Source: an uncultured virus (IMG/VR IMGVR_UViG_3300001282_000003)
Taxonomy: Duplodnaviria; Heunggongvirae; Uroviricota; Caudoviricetes
Strand: one strand, 5' to 3'
Virus record (IMG/VR): IMGVR_UViG_3300001282_000003
Length of the DNA: 64,000 bases
Under the pieces are notes generated by a model. The model searched no databases. It was not told where the DNA came from and worked only from the letters and a program-made list of their open reading frames with translations. Position numbers and translations under genes: made by a program. Each line of letters opens with the position of its first letter. The first letter of the stretch is position 1. Shown here one piece after another: positions 34,578-60,099 of the stretch.

Positions 34578-35894
34578 TTATTTACTTGCTTTAATAACTT
34601 TAATTCTTTCAGTTTGATATTTCATAATATCAACTTCTTGATGTTGCTTTAAGAAGTCAACCATCTTTTGATACATTTGAATTGTAATTCTACAATCAGT
34701 TAAGGCATCGTGATAGTTAGTCATATTAATTCCAAGAGCTGGTCCTACTTTAGACATAGAAGATGAAATTAAACCACCATCTCTTGATGATGTTCCAATA
34801 AAGTCAATTATATCTTTATATTTAGAATCTACTTCAGATAGTTTTTGTAAAAGTGGTAAATAATATAATTGAATTAGCATCTTAGTATCAAATACTTCAT
34901 TATTAATTTTATGACCATATCTACCAGCCAACATTGCCATATCAAAACCAGCATTCTGTGCTATAAATAAACAAGGCTCATAATTGCCAGTCCAATCAAA
35001 GAATTTATCTAATATCTCTTGTTCATTTTTGTATTTGTATTTACCTGAACCATAATGATTGAATCCTAATACCCATTTAGTTCTATCTTCTGGTGTACTA
35101 AATTTAGATTTAGTTTCATCTGTTAATTTAATCTTCTCATCAAATAATCCTAATTCATTAAATGTATTTGATTGAAAACTATAATCAGTTGCTAAAGCAG
35201 ATACTTGAGTTAATTGTTGTTGTTTAGGTCCACCTAAGCCTGTTGTTTCTGTATCTATCCAAAGCCATGTCATTTTAGATTTAGATTCTAACCATTCTAA
35301 TATTTGTGGAATAGTTTTATACCACATTTTATTTTCATTTAGTGATTCAACTATACCTTGATTGTATTTGAAATTTACTTTTTCACCACTTGGCATTGAA
35401 TAAGTTATATTATCAACATTCTTAACTTCATATTTATATTCTGGTTTAACATATTTCTTACCAGTTCCTTTGTTAACATAAGCGATTGTTATATGTGGTT
35501 TGTAATCAGGGAAACTATTTGAGTTAGGAAACTCAGAAAGTTTATCATGTAAATCTTGAAGAGCACCATCAGGGTTAACATTAAACTTAACAACATCATA
35601 GTCTTTGTTTTCAAAAACACCAATACCATCAACTTCTATATTAATACTTCCTGTAAATCCTTCAAATACAGATTTAACATCTTCTTCTGTTACACCTTCA
35701 TGTAAGCCGTATAATATAGTAACATGTGGATTTTCTTGAATACCGTGAGCGTCATCACCACCAGTGTAAACATCTTCTGGATTAATGTAACTTGTTATCT
35801 CATCCCAGTTACTAACTGGAACTTCAACCATTACACAGCCATATTCATAACCAGATGATTCTTTTATAAATTGTATATAACTTTTAATTATCAT
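34578..35894 (-). CDS. tagged fusion of a 2H phosphoesterase (Acb1/LigT-like) and a DEDDh 3'-5' exonuclease
   Basis: PHVTILYG and PDYKPHITIAY (two HxT motifs); WIDTETTGL, AQNAGFD, YHDALTD; N-terminus MIIKSYIQFIKES. Confidence 0.85.
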   Translation of the reverse strand: MIIKSYIQFIKESSGYEYGCVMVEVPVSNWDEITSYINPEDVYTGGDDAHGIQENPHVTILYGLHEGVTEEDVKSVFEGFTGSINIEVDGIGVFENKDYDVVKFNVNPDGALQDLHDKLSEFPNSNSFPDYKPHITIAYVNKGTGKKYVKPEYKYEVKNVDNITYSMPSGEKVNFKYNQGIVESLNENKMWYKTIPQILEWLESKSKMTWLWIDTETTGLGGPKQQQLTQVSALATDYSFQSNTFNELGLFDEKIKLTDETKSKFSTPEDRTKWVLGFNHYGSGKYKYKNEQEILDKFFDWTGNYEPCLFIAQNAGFDMAMLAGRYGHKINNEVFDTKMLIQLYYLPLLQKLSEVDSKYKDIIDFIGTSSRDGGLISSSMSKVGPALGINMTNYHDALTDCRITIQMYQKMVDFLKQHQEVDIMKYQTERIKVIKASK

Positions 35895-36382: not shown

Positions 36383-36721
36383 TTTCTTCTTAGATCTATC
36401 CCTTACGATATGGTATCCAATGAATTGAGAGAGTTGTGGGTGCCAATCATTTACGATGGTACTCTTAACTTAGAATCTAAAGAAGTAGTTCTTTACGAAG
36501 ATGAGTCAAGAGGAATCCGTAAGACAAGAGTTGACTTCATCCTTCCAAAAGATGTCGTAGAACTTTGTAAGGGAAAAGAGTTAGTGTCTGGTAAAGAATT
36601 ACATATCCGTGAAGGTATTGTACTTCGTCCTTACATTGACCGTGATGCTAGAGATGGTACTAAACTTAGGTTGAAAATCATCAACCCGGCATACAAAGAA
36701 ACCGGGGAAGAAATTAACTAA
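36383..36721 (+). pseudogene. 5'-truncated RNA ligase fragment (Rnl2/DRB0094-like C-terminal part)
   Basis: VPIIYDG...HIREGIVLRP...LKIINPAY are ligase motifs IV and V; no motif I KxxG upstream; in-frame stop at 36380. Confidence 0.65.
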
Positions 36722-36724
36722 AAG

Positions 36725-36756
36725 AAAAAACCCACTCATTTGAGTGGGTTTTTTTT
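36725..36756. terminator. bidirectional terminator AAAAAACCCACTC-attt-GAGTGGGTTTTTT
   Basis: Perfect stem between convergent genes; near-identical copies at 43744 and 58807. Confidence 0.88.
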
Positions 36757-37039
36757 ATTCTTCTCTATGAACTAATTTAATTTCATCTTCCCATCCTTCT
36801 GGAAGTTCTTCTTCCGGTTCTTGGTCAAATCCAAAATCCATTCCAACTAGATAGTTCATAACTGAATCAATCATAATATCATCAGCTCCTCTTTCTTTCA
36901 TATAAGCTTCATAGTCTTCTACTGTGTAGTAACCTTTTTCAGCCTGAAGTTTCTTTAATTCTGCTAATATACTAACAGCGATATCTTCATGAATATCTGA
37001 TGATTGTCCATAAGCTTCGAATGTTTTTAAGTATTTCAT
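36755..37039 (-). CDS. hypothetical acidic protein with tag MKYLKTFEA
   Basis: Shared N-terminal motif. Confidence 0.75.
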   Translation of the reverse strand: MKYLKTFEAYGQSSDIHEDIAVSILAELKKLQAEKGYYTVEDYEAYMKERGADDIMIDSVMNYLVGMDFGFDQEPEEELPEGWEDEIKLVHREE

Positions 37040-40732: not shown

Positions 40733-41716
40733 TTACTTTTCAAAATTTGCCATTGTTTTTACAAATAACTTCATATCTTCATCAGTTCTCATAATTTTAG
40801 AAACGTGAGGAAGATTCCAAGGTGAGTGACCAGAGATTTTCCAACCATCGATATACCAAGCAAACATTGGTTTGTTTAAGAACGATGTTTGTTGTAATTC
40901 ACCAAATGTACCACCACTTGTTACATCATTAAATCCTACAAATACAGCATCACATTTATTTACTATTAACTCATCTTCTGGCTCGATTGTTTGAGAGAAG
41001 ATTCTTGATATTTCATCAAATTGTCTTGGATCTTTAGTTTCTTCATATTCACCAGATTTGAACTTACCCATTTCTTTACCAAAATTAGGATTCTTAGTTC
41101 TATCCATTTCTTTTCTAACTGGATTTAAGATAGCTGGTCTATCATAATATTTAAGAGTGTAGTTATTACCACTATCAACAAATTGTGCTAAATGGTCACC
41201 ATCCACAACATAAGCGGGTTTTAAGACAATATTTTCACCGTGATAAGGAATAGTAATCTTTTCCATTTCTTCATAAGAAACACCTTTATTAACAACTTCA
41301 AATTCATATTCAACTTGTGCTCTCCAGCCTGCTCCAACATCTTTAGCTTTGTCCATACCACCGGCAAGGTATAAAGAATTCAATTCAAAAGCTCTAAAGT
41401 TCTTTTTGATATCATCTAAAGTTGTTAAGTCAAAAAGATCTAATTTACCAATCAATTCAGTATAGAATCTTTTTTTCTTATTAACAATATAGTTCATTAT
41501 CTTTTCATCAAACCATTTAACAAGTCTGTCTTTAATATCACTAAAGAAACCTTCGTTTAGTGATTCAGTTGTTAAAAGTGGAGTTAAATCTTTTTTAAGA
41601 TTTGAAATTTCACTTGATGGGATATTTTTAGCAATATAATTAAGTATTGCTTCTAAGTCTTTTTGGTCTTTTGAATCTTCATATGACTCGTTGAATTGCT
41701 GCCAGTTTTGGATCAT
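40733..41716 (-). CDS. nucleoside 2-deoxyribosyltransferase/dNMP N-glycosidase-like protein with tag MIQNWQQFNES
   Basis: LYLAGGM...WR, ILNP, DELIVNKCDAV, SGGTFGEL; start moved to ATG 41716. Confidence 0.7.
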   Translation of the reverse strand: MIQNWQQFNESYEDSKDQKDLEAILNYIAKNIPSSEISNLKKDLTPLLTTESLNEGFFSDIKDRLVKWFDEKIMNYIVNKKKRFYTELIGKLDLFDLTTLDDIKKNFRAFELNSLYLAGGMDKAKDVGAGWRAQVEYEFEVVNKGVSYEEMEKITIPYHGENIVLKPAYVVDGDHLAQFVDSGNNYTLKYYDRPAILNPVRKEMDRTKNPNFGKEMGKFKSGEYEETKDPRQFDEISRIFSQTIEPEDELIVNKCDAVFVGFNDVTSGGTFGELQQTSFLNKPMFAWYIDGWKISGHSPWNLPHVSKIMRTDEDMKLFVKTMANFEK

Positions 41717-41771
41717 AAAAATATTTTGTGTTTTGTGTATATATTTAATTTTCATTTGTATATTTGTAACT

Positions 41772-42170
41772 ATGAAACTGTATTATAATGGCAGAGGGTA
41801 TCCTGTACAGTGGAAATCCTTGATGAGAAAAGATATGTGGTATAATATGGAACCTGTGAAAATAAAATTCACACTTCCAGAATCTTTATATAAAGCAATT
41901 CTCATAGATATTAAATTAAATAAAGATGAGCATCGAGATATCTTTTCATTTAATCTACTCTTAAATAAAGATGAAATGTCTAGAGATCGTGATAAACTTG
42001 TTGTAGAAACAAATGAGTATTGGAAGATTGATGCTTGTGTAGATAGAGTTTCAATTACTTCTCGATTTAGAAATGGTGATGTGGTTGCTATATTTGAAGT
42101 TTCAATATTTGAAGAAGAAGAATTAGACAAATCTGAATTAAGAGAAATATTATTAAATGAACTTGTTTAA
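41772..42170 (+). CDS. hypothetical protein with C-terminal LREILLNELV tag
   Basis: ATG 41772 follows TATATTTG (41759..41766). Confidence 0.7.
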   Translation: MKLYYNGRGYPVQWKSLMRKDMWYNMEPVKIKFTLPESLYKAILIDIKLNKDEHRDIFSFNLLLNKDEMSRDRDKLVVETNEYWKIDACVDRVSITSRFRNGDVVAIFEVSIFEEEELDKSELREILLNELV

Positions 42171-42260
42171 AAGCGAGAACACCGAGGAGCGAATTCGGTG
42201 TTCTCAATAGTCACCCGTTGGGGTTATAACTATTCCGGTCCTAAGTCGGATTAAATTTAT
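42168..42260 (-). ncRNA. putative structured small RNA with 17/19 nt complementarity to 23S rRNA helix 69
   Basis: GC-rich non-coding island downstream of TTAATATATA (42265..42274, minus); three stems, ending in the 11 bp hairpin GAGAACACCGA/TCGGTGTTCTC plus UUUU on the minus strand. Confidence 0.6.
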
Positions 42261-42337
42261 AAAGTATATATTAAACTTTATCTACTCTTAATCATAAAAC
42301 AAAAGTAAATTAATGTCCAACAAAACAAAATAAACAA

Positions 42338-42652
42338 ATGATTAAACACGAAATCAAAGTAGAGTTCTCTAACTCTGAAGCTCTTAAAACTATTATTCAA
42401 AAAGCCTACTTCGAACAAGGTCAGATGGGTAAGATTTTAGGAAAGAACCACTTTATCACAGTTGATGAAACAAAAGATGATGTGGCTTACACAATTTTCA
42501 AAGGACTAAACAGTGCTACAGCAAAGATAACAAATGAAGAAGTTATCGATGGTGCTATGAGATTTATGATTGATGAAACATCTGGTGAAATCAGACTTTA
42601 TCCAATCTCTATCTACTGTATTCAAGAAGAAGAAAAATACATCTTCTATTAA
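42338..42652 (+). CDS. hypothetical protein
   Basis: 104 aa ORF with an A-rich leader. Confidence 0.75.
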   Translation: MIKHEIKVEFSNSEALKTIIQKAYFEQGQMGKILGKNHFITVDETKDDVAYTIFKGLNSATAKITNEEVIDGAMRFMIDETSGEIRLYPISIYCIQEEEKYIFY

Positions 42653-42671
42653 AAAATCAAACAAATTTATT

Positions 42672-43742
42672 ATGGTTCATCCAGATTTTAATGACATCCT
42701 GATCACTCCGGCTGTTGTATCAACTATTCGATCAAGAAGTGAAATTAAAGCTTATCAAATGAGTATAGGTGAAACTCCTTGGTTACCTTTATTTGTATCT
42801 CCAATGGATACTGTTATTGGTTTAGACAATTGGGAGTTATATCTGAATAATAAAATGCCTATTTGTTTTCCAAGAGATATTAGACCAAATTCCTTTAATG
42901 AGGATGATAAAGGTTTACTATCAGCTTATAGTGATGTTATTTTCTTTTCTTACTCTTTAGAAGAAGCATCAGCAATGTGTGAGTGGTTAAATAGTAATAA
43001 AGATAACGATTTAGAGTTTAATATTTTAATTGATATTGCTAATGGTCATATGAAACATATGGTTGATGTAGTTGAAAGATTAAGAGAAAGAACTAAAGTT
43101 AAAATCATGGTTGGTAATATTGCTAACCCTCAAACTTATAAAGTTTTATCAGAAGCAGGTGCTGACTTTATTAGAGTTGGTATTGGATTTGGTGGTGGTT
43201 GTTTAACTGCTATGAATACTGGTGTGGGTTACTCAATGGCTCAGTTAGTTAAAGAATGTGCTGACTTAAAAGACCATATGGAATCTATGGGTGATAGAAC
43301 TGCTAGTATTGTTGCTGATGGTGGATTCCGTGAGTATTCGGATATCATCAAAGCTCTGGCTTTAGGTGCTGATTATGTTATGTTAGGATCTATCTTAAAC
43401 AAATGTCTTGAGTCTTCTGGTGATACTTATTGGAAAGGTATAAAGGTTTCTCCTAATATTGCTAATTTTCTTTGGAAACGTAAATTCAAATTAGAAAAGA
43501 AGTTCAGAGGTATGAGTACTAAAGAAGTTCAAAAGAAATGGGGTAAGTCAAAACTAACTACATCTGAAGGAGTTGTTCGTATGAGAACGGTTAAATACAC
43601 TTTAGAAGGTTGGACTGAGAACTTTGTTGATTACTTAAAATCTACGATGTCTTATACTAACAGTAGAACATTAAAAGATTTTATTGGAAATGTTAAGTGG
43701 ACTGTGATTTCACAGAATGCTTATAATAGATTCAACAAGTAA
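42672..43742 (+). CDS. guaC: GMP reductase/IMPDH family protein
   Basis: DFNDILI, SPMDTV, IDIANGH, GNIA, RVGIGFGGGCLT (catalytic Cys), ADGG, FRGMS, SEG; start moved to 42672. Confidence 0.8.
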   Translation: MVHPDFNDILITPAVVSTIRSRSEIKAYQMSIGETPWLPLFVSPMDTVIGLDNWELYLNNKMPICFPRDIRPNSFNEDDKGLLSAYSDVIFFSYSLEEASAMCEWLNSNKDNDLEFNILIDIANGHMKHMVDVVERLRERTKVKIMVGNIANPQTYKVLSEAGADFIRVGIGFGGGCLTAMNTGVGYSMAQLVKECADLKDHMESMGDRTASIVADGGFREYSDIIKALALGADYVMLGSILNKCLESSGDTYWKGIKVSPNIANFLWKRKFKLEKKFRGMSTKEVQKKWGKSKLTTSEGVVRMRTVKYTLEGWTENFVDYLKSTMSYTNSRTLKDFIGNVKWTVISQNAYNRFNK

Positions 43743-43743
43743 C

Positions 43744-43773
43744 AAAAAACCCACTCAACTGAGTGGGTTTTTT
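43744..43773. terminator. bidirectional terminator
   Basis: AAAAAACCCACTC-aact-GAGTGGGTTTTTT between convergent genes. Confidence 0.88.
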
Positions 43774-43797
43774 ATTGTATTTGTAATTTTACTTATT

Positions 43798-58787: not shown

Positions 58788-58806
58788 CAGAGTCTCGTAG
58801 GAAAAC

Positions 58807-58837
58807 AAAAAACCCAGTCATTTGACTGGGTTTTTTT
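58807..58837. terminator. bidirectional terminator
   Basis: AAAAAACCCAGTC-attt-GACTGGGTTTTTTT. Confidence 0.88.
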
Positions 58838-58842
58838 ATTTA

Positions 58843-60099
58843 TTAATTTGCCATATCATATGAATCTTCATAAGATCCACCAGTATCTCTTAATAATCTA
58901 TCAGAATCATCCCAATAAACATTACAAGCTGTTCCTGTATCACTATTTATATAACATATAGTATCACAATAAGGATATTCACCAAAATCAGCGTCATCTA
59001 ACTTAACTTCAATTGTACCTTTTCTAACTGAATTACCATCAGTAAAATTTTCATCTGGTTCCATAGATTGTCTTTTCTTATACCACCAACCATTCTTTTC
59101 AGCAAATTGTTTGAATAATTCAACATCAGCATCAAGCGTTGTATAAATTCTATCCATAAATTTAATAGGTTGTCCATCTAATTTACAATCCCAAAGAATT
59201 GCTCTGCCCTTGATTCTATCATCAGTGTATTTTTCAGATTCAATACTGCCACTATCACCATAAAGTATAACAAGTGATACTTGAGGGTTTTGTGTATAGA
59301 TATCAAAATAATCAGAACTAACTTCAGCCATACAAGAATTATTTAATGAACCACCACCATCAACATATCTATCTTCATCATTATTATCATACCAGTAAGC
59401 AATTTTATCACCTTTAACGATATCAAATTGTTTAAGAGCATCTTTAGCAAAATCATAAGTTGCTTTATAAACATTAGTAAATTGTTCAATTTCTTGATCA
59501 GCAAAAGGTATTTTAGCCGCAGTAAGAATAGCTCTTACAACTCTACCTATTTTAATATTATTTCTTGATGTTGACCAAATTCTTTGATCCTCAGCTTCTT
59601 TAGGCTCCATAGCTTCTTTGTTAATAACTCCAATTTTATCACCTTCATATTCTTTAAACATAACATAGATTTTACCAGAAGTTCTACTAACAGTTTCTGC
59701 TAATATTAAACCTATCTCCCCGGCATTTGGTGCCCAACAATTGTATTTTGCTTTATCATAACCAAGAGCTTCAAATATTTTATTATTTCTATCACTTGTA
59801 GTTAGGTATTTACCAGATTCTGTAATTACCCAAGTTTCTGGTTTATCTTTAGTTAATTCTTGAACTTTTCTATCAGGAGTAAAACTAACAGCATCTTTTA
59901 AGTCTGTTACATCAATATAATTTTGAGTAACACCATCAACATCTTTAGAATAAAGACTTAATAATTGGGTAGCTAATTTATTAGCTTTCATCTTATTTAA
60001 TAAGTTAATAAACTTTTTTGAGTAAACTACTTTAGACTCTAGTAAAAGTTCATAAACCACTTTCTCTGAAATATAATCTCCGTATTTAAGAATTGCCAT
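58843..60099 (-). CDS. hypothetical late protein with a tag-like N-terminus and a conserved-looking SCM...GRAILW...MDRIY domain
   Basis: MAILKYGDYISE...LLLES; KIGRVVR, SLNNSCM, YPYCDT; TTAATATATA at 60123. Confidence 0.7.
   Translation of the reverse strand: MAILKYGDYISEKVVYELLLESKVVYSKKFINLLNKMKANKLATQLLSLYSKDVDGVTQNYIDVTDLKDAVSFTPDRKVQELTKDKPETWVITESGKYLTTSDRNNKIFEALGYDKAKYNCWAPNAGEIGLILAETVSRTSGKIYVMFKEYEGDKIGVINKEAMEPKEAEDQRIWSTSRNNIKIGRVVRAILTAAKIPFADQEIEQFTNVYKATYDFAKDALKQFDIVKGDKIAYWYDNNDEDRYVDGGGSLNNSCMAEVSSDYFDIYTQNPQVSLVILYGDSGSIESEKYTDDRIKGRAILWDCKLDGQPIKFMDRIYTTLDADVELFKQFAEKNGWWYKKRQSMEPDENFTDGNSVRKGTIEVKLDDADFGEYPYCDTICYINSDTGTACNVYWDDSDRLLRDTGGSYEDSYDMAN

Follow-up and report, generated by a model that had tools for sequence, protein, structure and literature searches.

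The small RNA gene and its locus

The stretch of DNA analyzed here, called the window throughout, comprises 64,000 nucleotides (nt) from an uncultured virus of the class Caudoviricetes (IMG/VR record IMGVR_UViG_3300001282_000003). A 167-nt gap between two of its plus-strand open reading frames (ORFs) holds a minus-strand small RNA gene at 42169-42259, which folds into three hairpins, the last of them an 11-bp terminator. Sequence comparison places this element, as a new member, in a large and unnamed RNA family that is confined to phages and predicted to be antisense to helices 69 and 70 (H69-H70) of 23S ribosomal RNA (rRNA). A previous inspection of the bare sequence, which ran no database searches (the sequence-only reading), had proposed a non-coding small RNA with its own terminator on this strand, and the proposal is upheld by a match to a covariance model of relatives, by the fold and by the terminator itself. 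Its statements about the letters were also all correct, namely the TTAATATATA motif on the minus strand, the 19-mer at 42227-42245, the 11-bp hairpin with a 9-nt loop and a U tract on the minus strand only.

From 5' to 3' the RNA consists of hairpin P4 with loop L4, a middle hairpin, and the terminator hairpin P1/P2 with loop L2 (Table 1). The minus-strand 98-mer containing the element folds at -30.4 kcal/mol (z = -4.5), a value that none of 200 shuffled sequences equals. The plus strand folds nearly equally well (z = -3.6), and folding energy therefore does not choose between the strands. The intrinsic terminator has the form expected of a small RNA, with GCUUUU directly behind a G+C-rich stem of 11 bp when the minus strand is read; the plus strand goes on as AATAGTC after the same hairpin. 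A terminator scan missed it because the scan permits loops of only 3 to 8 nt. The window L4 loop agrees with the family consensus at 8 of 9 positions and sits in the short hairpin P4. The middle hairpin, which includes AAUAGUUA, the complement of H69 loop bases 1911-1917, is shared with three other loci (L002-L004) and gives way to a shorter one in the syntenic locus L387, where AACTAT is retained. ARAGORN finds no transfer RNA (tRNA) or transfer-messenger RNA gene in the window, and a tRNA-like reading with L4 as the anticodon loop was dropped given that result, the 9-nt size of the loop and the lack of an acceptor stem.

Table 1. Features of the small RNA gene and its surroundings in the window
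Feature	Position	Strand	Remarks
Small RNA gene	42169..42259	minus	~85-95 nt; 3' end at U tract; match to model R1 and fold z score
Hairpin P4	42234..42250	minus	stem UCCG/CGGA (42250-42247 with 42237-42234); centroid fold
P4 loop L4, 9 nt, ACUUAGGAC	42246-42238	minus	complement of 23S 1921-1929; aligned by R1 to family P4 and CCUUAGGACC
Middle hairpin, AAUAGU/ACUAUU with inner ACCC/GGGU	42206..42233	minus	from the fold; occupies the place of P3 in the main family
Hairpin P1/P2, intrinsic terminator	42175..42205	minus	11-bp stem, GAGAACACCGA / 9-nt loop / TCGGTGTTCTC
Terminator loop L2, 9 nt, AUUCGCUCC	42194-42186	minus	complements 23S 1932-1937, and 1939-1941 with one base bulged
Terminator tail, GC then UUUU	42169..42174	minus	overlaps stop codon 42168-42170 of the convergent plus-strand ORF
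19-mer TAACTATTCCGGTCCTAAG	42227..42245	read on plus	17/19 identical to E. coli 23S 1911-1929
Flanking ORF, 132 aa	41772..42170	plus	convergent with the RNA; no PHROG match; homologue flanks the element in L387
Flanking ORF, 104 aa	42338..42652	plus	divergent from the RNA; no PHROG match; homologue at L387
AT-rich promoter block	42263..42275	either	plus GTATATATTAAA (42264-42275); minus -10-like TATACT (42268-42263), TTAAGA 17 nt upstream
Operon-start motif sites	41737, 42264, 54227, 56772, 60175 (minus), 62599		GTATATATTAAA motif

A phage-restricted family missing from Rfam

Relatives were collected by pattern scans of IMG/VR, and all counts given here refer to the matches listed from these scans, at least ~250 distinct members. 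A loose two-block pattern matched at least 120 loci, and among those listed, 68 sequences (window included) carry both blocks: 48 share a common elaborate architecture and 20 are of other types. Three of these 20 (L024, L054, and L065) were set aside as likely chance matches. A covariance model, R1, was then generated from 52 main-type loci of other phages, with the window excluded (alignment A2, on the strand antisense to rRNA). R1 matches positions 42171-42259 of the minus strand with 23.5 bits (E = 2.8e-4), the best of three matches in the 64-kb window; in a 456-kb search the same match has an E value of 0.002. Across the 100 sources searched, 60 loci are found at E <= 0.01. A second match in the window, at 2702-2802 on the plus strand (12.4 bits, E = 0.18), has CUUAGGACC inside a long plus-strand ORF and is probably due to chance.

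R1 aligns both the P4 hairpin and the terminator hairpin of the window to the family and assigns P3 to a deletion, and the window accordingly has no P3 loop GGCUGCU pseudoknotted to a 3' tail AGC. It represents a terminator-type sub-form without P3, of which 63 distinct examples are found among the members collected. The 9-nt L2 loop on a covarying stem is present, in a loop variant (ATTCGCTCC) seen in 3 of these 63. The closest locus among the members collected is L387, on a 385-kb contig, which is syntenic with the window and has homologous ORFs on both sides of the element. It retains CCGGTCCTAAG, AACTAT and the whole L2 hairpin, and its middle hairpin is replaced.

At gathering scores, Rfam 15 gave no match in the window or in 20 related loci, and a permissive Rfam scan of 42120-42340 reached 20.4 bits at best against a cut-off of 60. 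This check had been proposed by the sequence-only reading, and it returned no known family for the window. Among 185,579 prokaryotic species, each represented by one genome, there were three matches, only one of them a real member (66.7 bits, on a 7.6-kb contig of a metagenome-assembled genome). Copy number was 0 to 2 in each of five phage records searched. Neither megablast of window 41500-43000 nor blastn of a main-type element against named phages produced a match, BLAST being blind to short motifs; among named phages this one has no close relative. We hold it very probable that 42169-42259 of the minus strand is a real RNA gene belonging to a large, phage-restricted family that is missing from Rfam.

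Covarying stems around near-fixed loops

The main form of the RNA has four helices and a pseudoknot, while the terminator form has P4, a variable middle hairpin and the terminator hairpin. As RNAalifold on a raw MAFFT alignment recovered only part of this structure, the covariance model alignment was used instead. In A3, the R1 alignment of 60 sequences, 85.4% of 1,102 cells are paired versus 58.8% in shuffles. The covariation score on A3 is 0.666 versus 0.206 when shuffled, with none of 500 shuffles as high and slid controls at or below 0.128. Changes on both sides are seen at each of the 19 pairs, among them the three that join loop L3 to the 3' tail as a pseudoknot. The same behavior is seen in the terminator form: the terminator stem of the window differs from that of L002-L004 by three compensatory pair changes, with the loop and the 19-mer unchanged, and the nine stem pairs around L2 are each paired in 54 to 63 of the 63 terminator-type members, with several pair types. 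Set in these freely covarying stems are two near-fixed loops, CCUUAGGACC (ACUUAGGAC in the window) and AUUCGCUAC (AUUCGCUCC in the window).

A third loop, L3 (GGCUGCU), was considered as an antisense to the 530 loop of 16S rRNA and rejected, as the 7-mer occurs in 23S rRNA in both senses; further, its position 5 varies, and compensatory changes show its GCU to be paired with the tail of the RNA itself.

The strand antisense to rRNA

Fold energy did not distinguish the two strands among 52 members (mean of -25.2 kcal/mol for sense and -25.0 for antisense; Wilcoxon P = 0.81), and the strand was therefore assessed by counting G.U against A.C oppositions in the stems. On the proposed strand there are 36 G.U and 4 A.C in helices P1 to P3 of 50 main-type members, 55 and 13 over all modelled stems, and 35 and 8 in the nine stem pairs of the 63 terminator-type members. 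In L387, a G-C pair of the window terminator stem is replaced by an opposition that reads as G.U in the minus-strand RNA and as A.C in the plus-strand one. Terminators point the same way: at least four U residues directly follow the L2 hairpin on this strand in 11 of 12 terminator-type relatives. Neighboring genes agree: of the 52 main-type loci, 51 have an ORF on the antisense-to-rRNA strand to one side of the element and 39 have one to the other, 38 loci having both. By these three lines (G.U/A.C counts, terminators, and orientation of neighboring genes), the predicted RNA strand is the one antisense to rRNA, as the sequence-only reading had it.

Complementarity to 23S rRNA

E. coli K-12 rrlH reads TAACTATAACGGTCCTAAG at 1911-1929, and comparison with the 19-mer of the window confirms the identity of 17 of 19 positions given by the sequence-only reading. 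The exact 19-mer is present in at least four IMG/VR contigs. A further block lies in the terminator loop, which reads GGAGCGAAUUC on the plus strand, with GGUAGCGAAAUUCC as the 23S bases after 1929. The window element thus holds two rRNA-like blocks from one contiguous 23S stretch in permuted order: on the RNA, the complement of 1911-1929 lies 5' of that of ~1930-1941. In the family consensus, CCUUAGGACC and AUUCGCUAC are the Watson-Crick complements of the adjacent 23S stretches 1921-1930 and 1930-1937, the former being the 3' strand of H69 plus the junction after it. The complementary blocks cover E. coli 23S 1920-1931 and 1929-1937 in locus L011, and 1920-1929 in the window.

How much of this could be chance depends on the measure. 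A simple calculation puts the expected number of 17/19 matches at ~0.002 when a 98-nt element is compared with 4.4 kb of rRNA in a single orientation. Exact 10-mer complementarity by itself is not significant, as 492 of 2,000 element shuffles reach a run of 10 or more against 16S plus 23S rRNA. RNAduplex against all of 16S and 23S was dropped as non-discriminating, several unrelated 23S windows scoring equal to or better than the H69 window (-39.7 versus -36.0 and -35.6 kcal/mol in 50-nt windows). The decisive evidence is conservation in relatives rather than a chance estimate for the match.

Because the first pattern forced parts of both blocks, two scans were made that each left one loop free. 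When L3 and L2 were required, L4 was CCTTAGGACC exactly in 93 of the 109 distinct matches listed and had one mismatch in 15; the last was a chance match. When L4 and L3 were required, L2 was ATTCGCTAC exactly in 79 of the 117 distinct matches listed, with one mismatch in 8, two in 6, and a different loop in 24. In the 52 rows of A2, the GUA and the U that flank the required GCGAA are invariant. At 15 loci (L260, L265, L270, L278, and 11 others) GGG AGUCGUG CCC stands in place of the L2 hairpin, and E. coli rRNA contains no complement to it.

The extent of the conserved match was examined in 62 sequences anchored on GGTCCTAAG: 79% of them match rRNA position 1920 and 82% match 1930, and about half match the H69 loop positions 1912-1914. 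The heptamer UAGUUAC, complementary to 1910-1916, is present in 85 of 250 members with at least 6 of its 7 bases matched and no more than 24 nt 3' of L4; in 19 of these the match is exact, and shuffles give 5.3 and 0.2 members. In many sub-types it sits in the loop of a small hairpin. The sequence-only reading had expected that, if its proposal was wrong, the H69-matching bases would not be conserved in homologous elements; they are conserved. Its focus on H69 itself holds in part. The element is predicted to be antisense to the H69 region, and the invariant core of the family is the 3' strand of H69 with the next bases (23S 1920-1930) together with the permuted block 1930-1937 in the terminator loop, which had been overlooked, and not the H69 loop.

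The proposed target is itself constant. The rRNA segment ACGGTCCTAAGGTAGCGAAAT is identical in 77 of 77 matches (from 47 of 81 genomes of one phylum and two other genomes), and an invariant target fits loops that stay fixed across phages whose elements span 32% to 64% G+C.

Gene neighborhood and promoter

The two ORFs flanking the element belong to an island of three plus-strand genes, set in a stretch that is mostly minus-strand; the phage is AT-rich (~24 to 33% G+C). Relative to its neighbors, the element runs convergently or divergently in the window, L002-L004, and L387 and therefore needs its own transcription. Plus-strand 42265-42274 reads TATATATTAA, and the minus-strand TTAATATATA is the reverse complement of part of GTATATATTAAA. 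This nearly palindromic motif occurs more often than expected in the window: 14 times with up to one mismatch allowed, versus 3.8. As (TATAAA)GTATATATTAAA in the plus-type orientation, it lies 24 to 118 nt before genes at six operon starts, including that of the gene at 42338, and in the opposite orientation it also adjoins genes. The label of late promoter for the RNA, given by the sequence-only reading, is not supported, the motif also standing before plus-strand gene starts. A -10-like hexamer is found just upstream of the RNA on the minus strand at three aligned loci (TATACT in the window, TATAAT in L387, and TATTAT in L002), matches from a scan for promoter consensus sequences coincide with this place, and a minus-strand promoter at 42263-42275 is plausible. 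At the motif sites 41736 and 62598, TATATTTG follows, just before an ATG.

A constant neighboring gene was not found: Pfam searches of 36 upstream and 22 downstream neighbors gave unrelated families, including ferritin-like proteins, TctC, fatty-acid desaturase, ribonucleotide reductase, and nucleases. What is more regular in main-type loci is the distance to the upstream gene. At 43 of 51 loci, the upstream co-directional ORF has its stop codon either inside L4 or no more than 15 nt away from it. In 9 of 52 the ORF ends at the UAG within the CCUUAGGACC loop (L007, L022, L041, L047, L048, L082, L094, L096, and L100), and in most others the stop is 3 to 13 nt before the L4 loop.

Several further arrangements were observed. 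At L012, L055, L059, L077, L085, L116, and L118, the main-type element is followed by a consensus promoter (TTGACA-17-TATAAT), a Shine-Dalgarno sequence and an ATG; as the promoter comes directly after the element, the element ends the transcription unit at these loci, with no visible terminator. Other main-type loci have an ATAAATA-like late-promoter box after the element. An extra 5' hairpin, GG(G)UUUGAAGACC(C), stands just before L4 in L384, L385, L391, L392, L398, and ~15 more, as well as in L023, L044, and L049. Among the terminator-type members with this hairpin, three directly follow a gene for the large subunit of ribonucleotide reductase, and the L002-L004 elements sit just before a gene for the small subunit. 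Elsewhere in the window, a bidirectional terminator-like palindrome (A-run, CCCACTCA..TGAGTGGG, T-run) occurs at strand switches (36720-36762, 43739-43781, and 58802-58844), and a 438-aa ORF at 34578-35894 on the minus strand has weak PHROG matches to 'RNA ligase' (residues 54-145) and to DNA polymerase exonuclease.

Proposed mode of action and alternatives

Helix 69 forms a central inter-subunit bridge of the ribosome and contacts tRNAs, release factors and the recycling factor. Whether the small RNA works by pairing with host 23S rRNA is, in our estimate from the sequence comparisons, an evenly balanced question. If so, it would act in trans, with the exposed loops pairing with the rRNA of the host. 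The closed 9-nt loops would start contact by kissing, and the 5'-L4...L2-3' order would bring both loops onto adjacent segments of the target. H69-H70 is engaged in the 70S ribosome, and the accessible targets would therefore be nascent 23S rRNA, late 50S intermediates and free 50S subunits. The likely outcome would be a change, as infection proceeds, in how the 50S subunit matures or in how the subunits join; the RNA might act by inhibition, by protection or by guiding an enzyme. A broader proposition is that many unrelated tailed phages, both AT-rich jumbo phages and T4-like phages of marine and freshwater bacteria, carry RNAs that grip host helices 69-70, loop-loop and strand-invasion pairing then controlling 50S maturation, subunit joining or termination. 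We put this forward tentatively, as somewhat short of an even prospect.

A number of observations count against pairing with rRNA as the role of the loops. Most of the member patterns forced parts of the motifs, and the members are related by descent, so that the counts are not independent events. In the window, each loop is one base off both the consensus and perfect complementarity, and the predicted fold places the bases complementary to the H69 loop in a stem. Complementarity resides in closed 9-nt hairpin loops, and full 10-bp helices would require strand opening; L4 is partly paired within P4 in long forms; and the two blocks are permuted relative to a simple antisense. In 24 of 117 members the second loop differs from AUUCGCUAC at three positions or more; 15 of these members share GGGAGUCGUGCCC, a loop without a complement in E. 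coli 16S or 23S rRNA. A main-type paralogue (30.7 bits), the second copy in a complete 353-kb phage record (G003; L133:1500-1575), has CCUUAAACUAC instead of L4 and retains L3, the L2 sequence UCGCUAC and the AAGUGAGCA tail. Finally, the target segment is invariant in the sampled genomes, which leaves no room for covariation between host and phage.

Some of these points would suit a structured RNA whose fixed loops serve for protein docking, a tertiary contact, or a ligand or catalytic site, the likeness to rRNA being a relic or a coincidence. The main form with its pseudoknot is an intricate fold, typical of protein-, ligand- or self-acting RNAs, and such a role would accommodate the unrelated loops that replace L2. 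L3 is instructive as well: it matches 16S rRNA at 520-526 (518-527 in L011, 519-528 in L133), although its demonstrated partner is the 3' tail of the same RNA, in step with which it varies, and a match to rRNA can therefore be incidental. What speaks for rRNA instead is that two independent loops map adjacently, on the same strand, in one 18-nt rRNA stretch, with a joint chance of ~1e-6 by our own estimate, and that bases complementary to the H69 loop turn up repeatedly in different structural settings, both looped and as part of stems. In addition, no Rfam ribozyme or riboswitch model comes near the window or the 20 related loci, and the 36 upstream and 22 downstream neighbors include no constant gene that might encode a protein partner. 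We consider a role unrelated to rRNA less likely than pairing with it. The element could also be a cis-acting module at the 3' ends of mRNAs, as a terminator, a stability element, or a tether of terminating ribosomes through rRNA pairing. The closeness of upstream stop codons to L4 in main-type loci, with the UAG of CCUUAGGACC itself serving in nine, is as such a module would have it, and by eye at least 6 of 12 terminator-type members come directly after an in-frame-looking stop and supply the terminator. The convergent or divergent elements of the window, L002-L004, and L387, however, cannot be the 3' ends of their neighbors' mRNAs, and the neighboring genes are unrelated between loci. This makes a cis-acting module improbable for the family, and its orientation makes that role unlikely for the window member.

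Two further explanations leave aside an antisense RNA altogether, and the sequence-only reading had listed a form of each. In one, the plus strand is the functional RNA, a mimic of H69-H70 or a decoy for a protein that recognizes this part of 23S rRNA; the plus strand does fold nearly as well, and many members read on it as an H69-like hairpin followed by GGUCCUAAG. The G.U/A.C ratios of 36:4 and 35:8 favor the opposite strand, however, as do U tracts that occur there only and main-type neighboring genes in 51 of 52 and 39 of 52 cases, and the rRNA-like blocks stand in the wrong order for a mimic, which we regard as very improbable. In the other, the feature acts as DNA, either as a captured relic of rDNA or as a decoy or target of a LAGLIDADG homing endonuclease that cuts this 23S segment, a stretch known as a homing site. 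The stems covary with only the loop bases fixed, which points to selection on a folded single strand and therefore against a DNA-level feature. The rRNA-like sequence is split into permuted blocks 30 to 50 nt apart, so that the halves of the LAGLIDADG site are separated and in reversed order, and an endonuclease is not a constant neighbor (one GIY-YIG among 36 upstream neighbors). A DNA-level explanation is accordingly the most remote of those considered, and with the strand evidence and the split, permuted block order, neither the mimic nor the endonuclease decoy is favored.

Returning to pairing with 23S rRNA, we know of no natural bacterial or phage RNA that targets helix 69. Should the pairing be real, this family, with its hundreds of fixed-loop phage RNAs, would constitute a new class of virus-host interaction and a natural model for antisense inhibitors directed at a site that is universally conserved. 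A grip on helices 69-70 would then represent host takeover, or protection against ribosome-directed defense, without a described bacterial counterpart. If the pairing is not real, this is still a large, well-supported, unnamed class of structured phage RNA that merits an Rfam entry. The pairing idea can be tested directly in E. coli because the target sequence is identical there.

Comparison with known systems

A large comparative screen of IMG/VR intergenic regions for structured viral and phage RNAs has been reported (PMC10690425). Its main text does not mention 23S rRNA or rRNA complementarity, and the family motif strings were not found in the six supplementary files searched; the screen may well include the family as an unnamed candidate. 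The string GGUCCUAAGG occurs in no open-access PMC or bioRxiv paper, and searches of the same literature on phage small RNAs and helix 69, and on structured RNAs of cyanophages, gave no description of the family.

Among known phage RNAs, rnaC and rnaD of T4 (species 1 and 2) are alike in being stable, phage-encoded small RNAs without a known role. The 5' hairpin of T4 rnaD (L495:3054-3172), CCGG GUCGCUA CCGG, shares UCGCUAC with L2, and rnaC (L495:2909-3047) has GAGUAGCG twice, the complement of part of that hairpin loop. The match of R1 to the rnaD hairpin is confined to 27 nt and is not significant (7.5 bits, E = 0.37), and the RNAs are not similar over their whole length. Unlike the family, rnaC and rnaD do not have CUUAGGACC, and the best antisense stretch they have against E. 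coli rRNA, a 9-mer, falls at another place in 23S.

The box C/D and box H/ACA guides of archaea and eukaryotes are likewise small RNAs with 10 to 20 nt of rRNA complementarity, which in eukaryotes includes the H69 region. Their partner proteins are not known in bacteria. The phage RNA resembles the guides in being a small RNA complementary to rRNA and differs in that alignments A2 and A3 contain no conserved C/D-box, ACA-type motif or pseudouridylation pocket, and that Rfam snoRNA models are unmatched.

That helix 69 can be targeted by an antisense is suggested by a synthetic peptide nucleic acid (PNA) against it, which inhibited E. coli growth (Kulik et al. 2017, as summarized in the review PMC7038079), so that the site would be reachable. 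The PNA is complementary to H69, as the phage RNA is, and is man-made, short and unstructured; the result, as that review summarizes it, contains no evidence that the phage RNA acts likewise.

The closest likeness is to antisense RNAs that present their pairing bases in loops and to small RNAs that carry a terminator. Examples are CopA/CopT of plasmid R1, RNA I/RNA II of ColE1, and the enterobacterial small RNAs with seed regions. Like these, the phage RNA is short (~90 nt), holds its complementary bases in hairpin loops, has a rho-independent terminator and varies in its stems. It differs in that the inferred target is a universally conserved 23S stretch and not an mRNA or a plasmid primer, and in that two or three loops address adjacent targets in permuted order within a phage-confined family known from sequence. 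With rRNA as its putative target, the phage RNA would thus work most like the loop-presenting antisense RNAs and terminator-bearing small RNAs.

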